Assembly: GCA_023665205.1 (NCBI GenBank)
Contig: JAMPEJ010000005.1
Coordinates: 10,331 to 74,330, forward strand
Direction of reading: 5' to 3'
Length of the DNA: 64,000 nucleotides
Source: Corallococcus sp.
GTDB lineage: Bacteria > Bacillota > Clostridia > Christensenellales > CAG-314
Position numbers and translations under genes: made by a program
Shown here: piece by piece, positions 2,906 to 4,224 of the stretch
Layout of the letters: the number at the start of each line of letters is the position of its first letter
Position numbering within the stretch: the stretch's first letter is position 1
The notes under the pieces: model-generated
What the model saw: the letters and a program-made list of their open reading frames with translations, nothing else
What the model was told of the DNA's origin: nothing
The model's database searches: none

Positions 2906-2945
2906 CCGCCACAAGGGCAAATAAAGCCCCGTGGCGGCATTTTTA
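2906..2945 (+). terminator. terminator between the convergent PAP2 and immunity genes
   Basis: ccgccac..gggc/gccc..gtggcgg hairpin followed by a T tract. Confidence 0.65.
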
Positions 2946-3037: not shown

Positions 3038-3385
3038 TCAACTGTCGTATTTGTAAGGAATTTTGTTTTTGCGTTCGCCCTTGAAGTTTAGAATATAGCC
3101 GTCCTCTACTTTGCACCACCAACGCGGATCCTTTTTCGGCAAGGCCGCCAAAAGCCTTTCATCGGTAACTTCCCACCAATCGCACTCCTTTACAAACTCC
3201 AAATCTTCTATCCGTATTTCGCAATACTTATAGAAATCGTACTCATCGCCTGTTTCAAACATTACGTAAAACAAATTGTCGCGTATTTCCGCGCTCCAAA
3301 TGTTGCCGACTTCGCCTGCATGCACGTTGCACTCGGCATATTCCGGTCTGTCCTTTATTACCCTTACATAGTCAAAGTATTTCAT
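3038..3385 (-). CDS. DUF4926-like (SH3-like) putative immunity protein with a conserved C-terminal extension
   Basis: Pattern D.VRV..D.......aG.vG.I.......y.V.F; ATGA overlap with the upstream toxin; paralog at 21413-21751. Confidence 0.65.
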   Translation of the reverse strand: MKYFDYVRVIKDRPEYAECNVHAGEVGNIWSAEIRDNLFYVMFETGDEYDFYKYCEIRIEDLEFVKECDWWEVTDERLLAALPKKDPRWWCKVEDGYILNFKGERKNKIPYKYDS

Positions 3386-4041
3386 TTTTTATCCATTCCT
3401 CCAAAATAAGAATTACATTTCAGCGTTCCGTCTGGAAAAATCATCCAGTTGGACCACATTTCTATTTCCTTGCCCAGTTTGGGATTCTTACTGGGTATTT
3501 TGAAAATACAATTGATTTTATAACCATATTTATCATGTTTTTCGCATTCATAATTGCCGGAAACATAGGAATCTTTCGTCTTTTGCGCAATTAAATTTTC
3601 AAAATATTCCTTTTCGTCGTCAGCATAGCCACATAAATGATACAAATGCAGCTTACTTTTCCACATATAGTCTATCTTGCCTTCCGTTTCAATTAGTTGT
3701 ATATCCGAAGGTTGCGGATTGCGAATTGGCAACTTTTTGCAATGACAGTTGGGGTGGTACAAACCGCGTTTGGATTGCGGCACGTCCTGCTGCGTATATC
3801 TGCCGTAATCGAATTCCTGCGGCTTTTTATCAACTTCGTCAACAAACCAACAGTGGTTGACGGTGATACATTTCCAGCAATGGTTCTCGACTTTATCCGG
3901 CACCCCGTCTTTGTAAGAAAAATCCTCTATCGTCCATTTGCTTTGGTCATCGTTTATCCTTATCCAGTCGGAAAAGAACGCCTTTGCTTCTTCGTGCACC
4001 GATTGCACGCTGCGAACGGCGTTTACGTTGGTGTTATCCAT
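3382..4041 (-). CDS. Putative polymorphic toxin: MuF-like Cys/His core fused to a DUF6883-like C-terminal domain
   Basis: HCWKC...GLYHPNCHC resembles MuF CxxC..HPNCRC; the C-terminus K.DY..K......GY..KYG.K.....P..W....G.LK resembles DUF6883; AAGGAGGT SD. Confidence 0.6.
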   Translation of the reverse strand: MDNTNVNAVRSVQSVHEEAKAFFSDWIRINDDQSKWTIEDFSYKDGVPDKVENHCWKCITVNHCWFVDEVDKKPQEFDYGRYTQQDVPQSKRGLYHPNCHCKKLPIRNPQPSDIQLIETEGKIDYMWKSKLHLYHLCGYADDEKEYFENLIAQKTKDSYVSGNYECEKHDKYGYKINCIFKIPSKNPKLGKEIEMWSNWMIFPDGTLKCNSYFGGMDKK

Positions 4042-4107
4042 ATTGTATCATACCTCCTTGATATTGGCAACCGTTTGGCTATTATTTGGAACATTTATTC
4101 TAAACGC

Positions 4108-4135
4108 ATTGTATCACCAAAACGCCAATTGTCAA
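4108..4135 (-). promoter_or_regulatory. sigma-A promoter of the toxin-immunity cassette
   Basis: TTGACA-N16-TACAAT with TGn extension. Confidence 0.7.
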
Positions 4136-4190: not shown

Positions 4191-4224
4191 AAAAAGCGGA
4201 AAGAACGTGTTCTTTCCGCTTTTT
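4191..4224 (-). terminator. intrinsic (bidirectional) terminator after pnp
   Basis: Perfect hairpin aaaaagcggaaagaac-gt-gttctttccgcttttt. Confidence 0.88.

Follow-up and report, generated by a model that had tools for sequence, protein, structure and literature searches.

The window analysed here is a 64,000-nt stretch of contig JAMPEJ010000005.1 (positions 10,331 to 74,330; contig C12 below) from Corallococcus sp. (GTDB lineage Christensenellales; CAG-314). Near its start, on the minus strand, lies a two-gene cassette comprising a putative toxin with a reduced MuF core and a putative immunity protein (Table 1). The toxin stop codon and the immunity start codon overlapped within the ATGA at bases 3385..3382 of the minus strand, and Shine-Dalgarno sequences (AAGGAGG and GGAGGAA) were present ahead of the two start codons. 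The promoter-like site upstream matched 11 of 12 consensus positions together with the TG of an extended -10 element and was the best site in the scan; the number of such sites in 2 kb (4 observed, 3.6 expected in shuffles) was not significant by itself. The gene upstream of the cassette is a 707-aa open reading frame (ORF) that was read by eye as pnp, not portal, and its terminator hairpin insulates the cassette from it. At the other end, the hairpin shared with a convergent membrane-protein gene folded in both directions, with -27.3 kcal/mol (z = -5.2) for the minus strand and -21.5 kcal/mol (z = -3.5) for the plus strand, and terminator-like sites in this region were also returned by a separate promoter/terminator scan. 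All of the sequence features listed in the original prediction, that is, the reading frames, motifs, ATGA overlap, promoter-like site and flanking terminators, were found to be present for this minus-strand pair.

Table 1. Features of the cassette, its orphan immunity paralogue and the head cluster of the same genome. Positions refer to the window unless contig C12 or C4 is named.
Feature	Position	Strand	Basis or remark
Toxin gene, 219 aa	3382..4041	-	ORF; 61 near-length homologues
Mini-MuF core, residues 22-112	3706..3978	-	Conserved motif, hhalign, domain-only model
HCWKC (residues 54-58), C55 to C58	3868..3879	-	Candidate metal ligands
HPNCHC, within GLYHPNCHC (residues 93-101)	3739..3756	-	Candidate metal ligands
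C-terminal toxin domain, residues 113-219	3385..3705	-	DUF6883/BECR-Tox3-like predicted RNase
Immunity gene, 115 aa	3038..3385	-	DUF4926-like N-terminal half plus C-terminal 45 conserved residues
Sigma-70-type promoter-like site, TTGACA-16-TGnTACAAT	4135..4108	-	Consensus match only
Intrinsic terminator hairpin of upstream pnp gene	4191..4224	-	-19 kcal/mol, z -6.6, then U5
Two-way terminator hairpin, immunity gene/convergent membrane-protein gene	2906..2938	both	U-rich tail
Orphan immunity paralogue, 112 aa	21413..21751	-	62% identical to cognate copy
TerL	C12:1143-2564		Terminase_6N, E 2e-10
Portal, split over contig ends	C12:12-416 + C4:5983-7362		P22_portal, E 7e-14
Scaffold-like gene	contig C4		Own-genome head cluster
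Capsid gene	C4:4122-5285		Own-genome head cluster
Whole own-genome head cluster (L099, L100)	C12:12-2564 + C4:173-7362		tblastn; relatives L085-L098, L020, L084

The toxin begins with 20 disordered residues, which are followed by the mini-MuF zinc core and, C-terminally, by the DUF6883/BECR-Tox3-like domain. The AlphaFold2 model of the full-length protein had a mean predicted local distance difference test (pLDDT) score of 83.3. The C-terminal half was placed through its relatives, since the window toxin itself had no match to PF21814, the DUF6883 model (cut-off 27 bits). An exhaustive phmmer search with the toxin returned 145 representatives at E <= 0.001, in which residues 130-217 aligned to the extreme C-termini of far longer proteins (E = 3e-5 to 8e-4). 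When these long relatives were scanned, PF21814 was present in all 10, above its cut-off in 8, and the regions ahead of it were RHS, PAAR, prePAAR, Tox-PAAR-like and peptidoglycan-binding. Placement of DUF6883 behind RHS/PAAR-type regions in this way is characteristic of the C-terminal domains of polymorphic toxins. Shorter members of the wider family also matched PF21814 (9 of 10 at E <= 1, three of them above the cut-off, best E = 1.4e-10). By transitive homology, the C-terminal half of the toxin is a relative of DUF6883/BECR-Tox3, as had been proposed.

The best match for this domain by fold in the PDB was 6cp9_A (CdiA-CT Kp342, from Klebsiella pneumoniae 342), aligned over 115 columns with a probability of 0.95; no PDB match to the toxin model reached E <= 0.001. 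CdiA-CT Kp342 is reportedly a contact-dependent inhibition tRNase with the BECR fold, and is said to have been described in the journal Structure in 2019. The domain is a predicted RNase of the colicin-D/CdiA-CT type, with K130 and K175 as conserved basic candidates and H169 variable, residues that permit no catalytic assignment. In the available part of bioRxiv 10.64898/2026.08.28.747851, DUF6883 is classed within the BECR fold as BECR-Tox3, and is described as having a conserved downstream DUF4926 partner and frequent N-terminal fusions to Phage_Mu_F.

The N-terminal core was recognised by its motif. Among the near-length homologues of the toxin, of which 61 were found, an alignment of 28 sequences showed H54, C55, C58, H96 and H100 to be invariant and C99 nearly so (at least 90%), and the resulting Cys-x2-Cys...His-x2-Cys arrangement is likely to be a metal site. 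Canonical MuF domains, as scored in 120 genomes of the same class, end in C..C..LDGK.F......PP.HPNCRC, while the wider family of proteins of approximately 180-220 aa displays W.W.H...HCxxC..L.GC.F...MP..P.HPNCHC, followed by DUF6883. When an N-terminal profile was broadened by combining the narrow family with these wider-family phmmer relatives (approximately 180-220 aa), hhalign aligned it to the MuF profile with a probability of 93.7% (P = 2e-7) over 37 columns, falling within columns 67-107 of the 108 in the MuF profile. The real score of 39.7 compared with no more than 13.5 for 40 column-shuffled MuF profiles, 11.6 for a reversed profile and 8.5 for the C-terminal half of the toxin. The signal appeared only once wider-family members had been added.

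Pfam models gave little directly. The window toxin did not match PF04233 (gathering score 29.6 bits) at E <= 1, and neither did anything else in its own genome. Weak matches to Phage_Mu_F were obtained for 3 of 10 wider-family members (E = 0.17-0.26), all of them at profile positions 59-111. The helical N-terminal two thirds of MuF (profile positions approximately 1-60) was detected neither by hhalign nor through these weak matches. A model of the mini-MuF core by itself had a pLDDT of 93.9 and, when searched against BFVD, 20 of its top 50 matches were named as minor capsid or head morphogenesis proteins; the full-length toxin model returned nothing from the PDB for the N-terminal domain. The toxin was the sole protein of its genome with a CxxC...HPxC[RH]C motif, and its core, although non-catalytic, was conserved to the same degree as the toxin domain. 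Taken from these profiles, only the metal-binding end of MuF is kept and formal Pfam membership failed; the reduced core put forward in the original prediction was thereby upheld by the broadened profile and not by any direct Pfam match.

A comparable MuF end was observed in other short proteins. In L074 (456-1650, minus strand), a protein of approximately 170 aa joined a 50-residue MuF end to a domain that was barnase-like by eye; in proteins of this type the MuF end scored above the Pfam cut-off, at profile positions 57-111. The gene was followed by two 109-aa genes, barstar-like by eye, and lay beside a 410-aa ORF resembling a cell-wall peptidase, also by eye. Short frames similar to the L074 protein were seen in L073, L077, L082 and L083. 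These barnase fusions suggest that the mini-MuF core serves different kinds of toxin as an exchangeable tag.

The 115-aa protein had 227 homologues. The window copy did not match DUF4926 (PF16277) at E <= 1, while the model was found in 14 of 37 aligned relatives (best E = 3.6e-7), which were 48-83% identical to the window copy; the DUF4926-like partner that had been proposed was thereby recovered through its relatives. The last 45 residues (DPRWWCKVEDGYILN..GE.KNKIPY.Y.S; 3038..3175, minus strand) were nearly invariant across the 37 relatives, and the DUF4926-like half was far more variable. A conserved C-terminus beside a variable DUF4926-like half is the opposite of the pattern usual in immunity proteins. 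No DNA-binding family was detected in the 115-aa protein or its relatives.

A complex of the two proteins, the prediction of which had been suggested beforehand, scored 0.86 against 0.01 for the best control, and passed in two of three runs. The mark applied is attained by 58 of 80 solved complexes and by 2 of 110 mismatched pairs; agreement between runs was at least 6% and the partner pLDDT at least 80. The predicted interface chiefly joined the toxin C-terminal domain (residues 118-130, 168-175 and 210-218) to immunity residues 4-56 and 70-89, together with a few mini-MuF residues (38-41, 43 and 56). On homology and modelling, the 115-aa protein is a divergent member of the DUF4926 family of immunity proteins and a predicted toxin binder.

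When the genome of origin was searched, two immunity copies and one toxin copy were recovered. The second immunity copy is the orphan paralogue listed in Table 1; its reading frame was intact, and no toxin homologue or remnant was present among the neighbouring ORFs. By eye, its neighbours were ordinary chromosomal ORFs, including a D-Ala-D-Ala carboxypeptidase and a phosphopentomutase.

A genome scan, in which each species was represented by one genome, produced 52 further loci. All of them came from metagenome-assembled genomes of Clostridia, mostly gut, faecal or rumen by their record titles, and several host records were labelled Christensenella, Christensenellaceae or Candidatus Onthoplasma. 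Host genome sizes were 0.8-2.1 Mb, and the genome containing the window was 96% complete. Gene content was tallied from crude ORF calls in 53 records, that is, the 52 loci plus the window. The toxin gene was directly followed by an immunity gene on the same strand in 44 of 53, and 40 retained a toxin ORF that was 190 aa or longer. More than one immunity gene was present in 10 of 53 records, and 11 immunity genes across the 53 lacked a preceding toxin gene. Where an adjacent DUF4926-like gene was lacking, a different ORF of 80-105 aa was seen to recur downstream (L038, L041, L042 and L054); this may be an alternative immunity family.

The neighbourhood survey that the original prediction had advised showed the cassette to lie outside any prophage head module in the window and in 52 of 52 genome loci. 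Neighbouring genes were not conserved across loci, and those scanned were mostly housekeeping genes. The 150 nearest neighbours matched 149 PHROG families, and none of the best 25 of these was a portal, terminase or capsid (four ORFs longer than 900 aa, 36 cluster duplicates and four window neighbours were left out of this tally). In none of the 52 genome loci did a portal homologue abut the toxin. In genome-wide searches for canonical MuF and capsid genes, from which L046 and L049 were left out, canonical MuF was found in 1 of 49 host genomes and no toxin locus itself matched. Searched with tblastn, the toxin matched none of 50,697 phage records and none of 72,556 plasmids, and a wider-family representative (P0237) likewise had no match in the phage records. 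A single toxin locus, L084, was found in IMG/VR, while a pattern scan of that collection with motifs from the wider-family alignment, its scope bounded by the patterns used, returned no relative. At five loci (L007, L013, L040, L043 and L044), a TraG/VirD4-type coupling protein was encoded a few genes upstream of the cassette (PF02534 in L007, E = 6e-50), which suggests carriage of some copies by conjugative elements.

The IMG/VR record showed where such a cassette can sit in a virus-like setting. The gene order in L084 was portal (phrog_156, E = 1e-47), toxin, three immunity genes, a 223-aa gene and a major head protein (phrog_14242, E = 1e-55). Here the toxin gene abutted the stop codon of the portal gene, which is the canonical MuF slot in the interval between portal and scaffold, and L084 alone had this arrangement. 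When the L084 head proteins were compared by tblastn with the 52 loci and with the genome of the window, matches occurred only in L020 and in that genome, where they fell outside the window. They delimited a podovirus-like head cluster split over two contigs (Table 1). The cassette is situated at C12:13368-14371, 10.8 kb from TerL; because the window begins at C12:10331, the head cluster was out of sight when the original prediction was made. The description of the cassette as phage-free was therefore correct within the window and did not extend to its surroundings, given the nearby cluster and the presence of its capsid gene in all 49 toxin-bearing genomes searched. None of the ORFs between TerL and the cassette matched L084 head proteins, and several were housekeeping-like by eye.

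In fourteen fetched loci with related head clusters, the same gene order recurred over approximately 10 kb: TerL came first, then two small genes, portal, scaffold and capsid, followed by four or five structural genes and by genes for small membrane proteins. In 12 loci, portal and scaffold were separated by -11 to +48 nt; the corresponding gap in L084 measured 2080 nt and accommodates the toxin and three immunity genes. No MuF gene was present in the cluster of the window's genome or in the related clusters. One flanking gene was common to 7 of the 14 loci. Whereas all 49 toxin-bearing genomes searched had the capsid gene, it was found in 66 of the 151 genomes of an even sample of the order; it was usually single-copy, occupying two places in 3 of the 66. 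The toxin profile matched 16 of the 151 genomes, of which 13 were capsid-positive, and all five matches covering nearly the full profile were in capsid-positive genomes. The sole tyrosine recombinase in the window's genome was on another contig. From its gene order and distribution, the head cluster looks like a vertically inherited element resembling a gene transfer agent (GTA). In 5 of the 14 loci (L090:16235-17059, L092, L095, L097 and L098), a gene of approximately 200-270 aa was found near the TerL end; by eye, its C-terminus resembled sigma-factor region 4, a helix-turn-helix, and it may regulate the head cluster.

Three groups of known systems are closest to the cassette. MuF polymorphic toxins of temperate phages, as described in the available parts of PMC5576092 (Jamet et al. 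2017) and PMC11699363 (the latter for Apk2 and Bxa), likewise combine an N-terminal MuF module with a C-terminal toxin and one or more small downstream immunity genes, have multi-immunity loci, and share the CxxC...HPNC[RH]C core. They differ in length, being several hundred residues rather than 219, and in the extent of the MuF part: the Pfam model has 112 positions, of which only some 40 columns at the end are detectable here, and that model does not score the window toxin at all. Their position differs also, since the cassette lies outside head modules and follows a portal gene only in the IMG/VR record. According to the accessible text of PMC11699363, a JBC paper of 2024, how MuF toxins reach their target, and what role they have, is unsolved, and bench work is confined to Apk2 and Bxa. 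The second group is the pairing of DUF6883/BECR-Tox3 with DUF4926, which, in so far as bioRxiv 10.64898/2026.08.28.747851 was available, has the same toxin family, the same downstream partner and the same association with Phage_Mu_F. The cassette had been presented as a candidate undescribed system, and that part of the claim is superseded by this preprint. It is distinguished from the published pairs by both window proteins falling below Pfam thresholds, and by the extra, highly conserved 45 residues at the C-terminus of the window immunity protein. In the accessible portions of the literature on MuF, DUF6883, DUF4926 and GTAs, supplements aside, there is no description of chromosomal cassettes that stand alone and carry a reduced MuF core.

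The CdiA-CT Kp342/CdiI pair (PDB 6CP9), the best structural match, resembles the cassette in that the toxin is neutralised by a bound immunity protein. It differs in its delivery, for which Proteobacteria use a two-partner secretion filament, and in having an immunity protein of unrelated fold. For the head cluster, the nearest comparison is FpGTA of Faecalibacterium: in the part of PMC12946183 that was available, both are clusters of approximately 10 kb and around ten genes of short-tailed-phage type, both include TerL, portal, scaffold, capsid and conserved hypothetical genes, and both are near-universal within their lineage. This likeness is one of gene make-up only, the head cluster being known from its genes. 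The same source reports GTA-like packaging in Christensenellaceae, and in its available part no toxin cargo is reported for FpGTA. Nor is toxin cargo in GTA-like particles described in the accessible MuF and GTA literature, supplements aside.

These observations were brought together in a single explanation, to which a probability of roughly 0.6 was assigned when cassette identity and particle delivery are taken as a whole. The 219-aa protein would combine a reduced MuF metal-binding core with a C-terminal predicted RNase, and the translationally coupled 115-aa protein would bind the toxin domain and so keep the producer safe. Through its mini-MuF core, the toxin would be directed to the portal or procapsid of the podovirus-like, GTA-like cluster resident in the genome, the released particles would carry it into neighbouring cells, and cells with the cognate or the orphan immunity gene would survive. 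The parts of this explanation differ in strength. That the cassette pairs a toxin made of a reduced MuF core and a DUF6883/BECR-Tox3 domain with a DUF4926-type immunity protein is very probable; these identities rest on homology, modelling and gene order. Delivery through particles of the resident cluster, with the mini-MuF core acting as the tag, is tentative, and the odds are somewhat against it; it was graded low because the co-occurrence of toxin and cluster could be phylogenetic and because most cassettes are not linked to the cluster. In a more specific version, which is doubtful, this Christensenellales-type order would have a podovirus-like, GTA-like particle, inherited vertically, for which the toxin is cargo supplied in trans. 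The cluster would have lost its own MuF gene, or never had one, and the scattered chromosomal cassettes would each provide an RNase joined to a minimal tag for portal targeting; this would make the particles inter-strain weapons, and the orphan immunity genes a shield.

Several results weigh against this explanation. With respect to identity, neither protein matched a family directly when searched against Pfam, PHROGs, NCBIfam and PADLOC, the sole weak match in the four libraries being phrog_19858 (E = 0.068). Among 28 close family members, PF21814 matched only one (E = 0.059) and PF04233 none at E <= 10; the N-terminal profile of the narrow family aligned to MuF over just 13 columns, with a probability of 27-36%. 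The structural matches were weak for both halves, with E = 0.07, a template modelling (TM) score of 0.57 on the target and 19% identity for 6cp9_A, and E = 0.31 with a TM score of approximately 0.38 for the best BFVD match to the mini-MuF core. The third run of the predicted complex scored 0.00. Toxin ORFs were only fragmentary in 12 of 53 records. With respect to delivery, the toxin was absent from three relatives of the same genus in which the cluster was present. Toxin and cluster were mostly unlinked, either separated by 148-201 kb or placed on different contigs; only in G136/L020 did they lie close together (approximately 5 kb). In 3 of the 16 genomes with toxin-profile matches the capsid gene was not found, the match there being to the C-terminal part only. 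Finally, the head cluster was all-or-none by family in the order sample, such that its co-occurrence with the toxin may reflect shared ancestry.

The original prediction had regarded the pair as a domesticated toxin-antitoxin-like module, and in that case the RNase would act within the cell: the core would respond to an infecting phage, either sensing its portal or procapsid or being titrated by it, and the toxin would be freed to kill the infected cell in a toxin-antitoxin or abortive-infection response. Much about the locus suits such a module. The pair is tightly coupled, has its own promoter-like site and terminators, and stands alone between housekeeping genes; its 52 genome loci are scattered over non-conserved chromosomal sites, canonical MuF occurs in only one of the 49 host genomes, and MuF is regarded as a capsid-targeting domain in the available part of PMC11699363. 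This alternative was nevertheless judged improbable. The orphan immunity genes speak for intercellular delivery of the toxin rather than for toxin-antitoxin defence, and with the multiple immunity genes of 10 records they suggest protection from incoming toxins; the toxin domain is shared with secreted RHS/PAAR effectors, which points the same way. In addition, no PADLOC model matches either protein, the toxin gene comes first, and the small protein has no detected DNA-binding domain.

Comparison with L084 raises the further possibility that the cassette is a selfish leftover of a head module, moved or left behind, and maintained as an addiction-type pair that is not delivered anywhere. The fragmentary toxin ORFs, the lack of conserved neighbourhoods and the absence of the cassette from the three same-genus genomes would be expected of such a remnant, and the coupling protein near five loci suggests mobility. 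Against this, most records retain a toxin ORF of 190 aa or more, residues of the metal site and of the domains show little or no variation, and the orphan immunity gene is intact; conservation of the mini-MuF core to the level of the toxin domain would be hard to explain if the core had no role. Little probability was therefore left to an undelivered remnant. A toxin delivered by some other route, whether released when cells lyse, exported by a secretion system that escaped recognition, or carried in the heads of unrelated infecting phages, would account for the separation of toxin and cluster in most genomes, and for the short mini-MuF toxins of barnase-like type that, with two barstar-like genes, occur beside ordinary chromosomal genes in other Clostridia. 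The chances of this were considered slim: no signal peptide was evident in the hydrophilic N-terminus of the toxin, neither WXG100 nor a VirD4-type coupling protein was found in the window's genome, which is 96% complete, and the toxin is nearly absent from viral collections, with one locus in IMG/VR and none among the phage records or plasmids.

If the link to particles fails, the cassette would be no more than a divergent but ordinary example of a toxin-immunity pairing known from earlier computational work. In either case its MuF part is cut to a core of approximately 90 residues and occurs outside prophages, in genomes of 0.8-2.1 Mb, each of which has one small head cluster lacking MuF. 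This provides a minimal and tractable system in which to ask whether the MuF core is a capsid-targeting tag. The same system bears on the RNA target of the DUF6883/BECR-Tox3 domain, the RNase activity of which is predicted, and on whether the GTA-like particles of gut Clostridia carry protein weapons.

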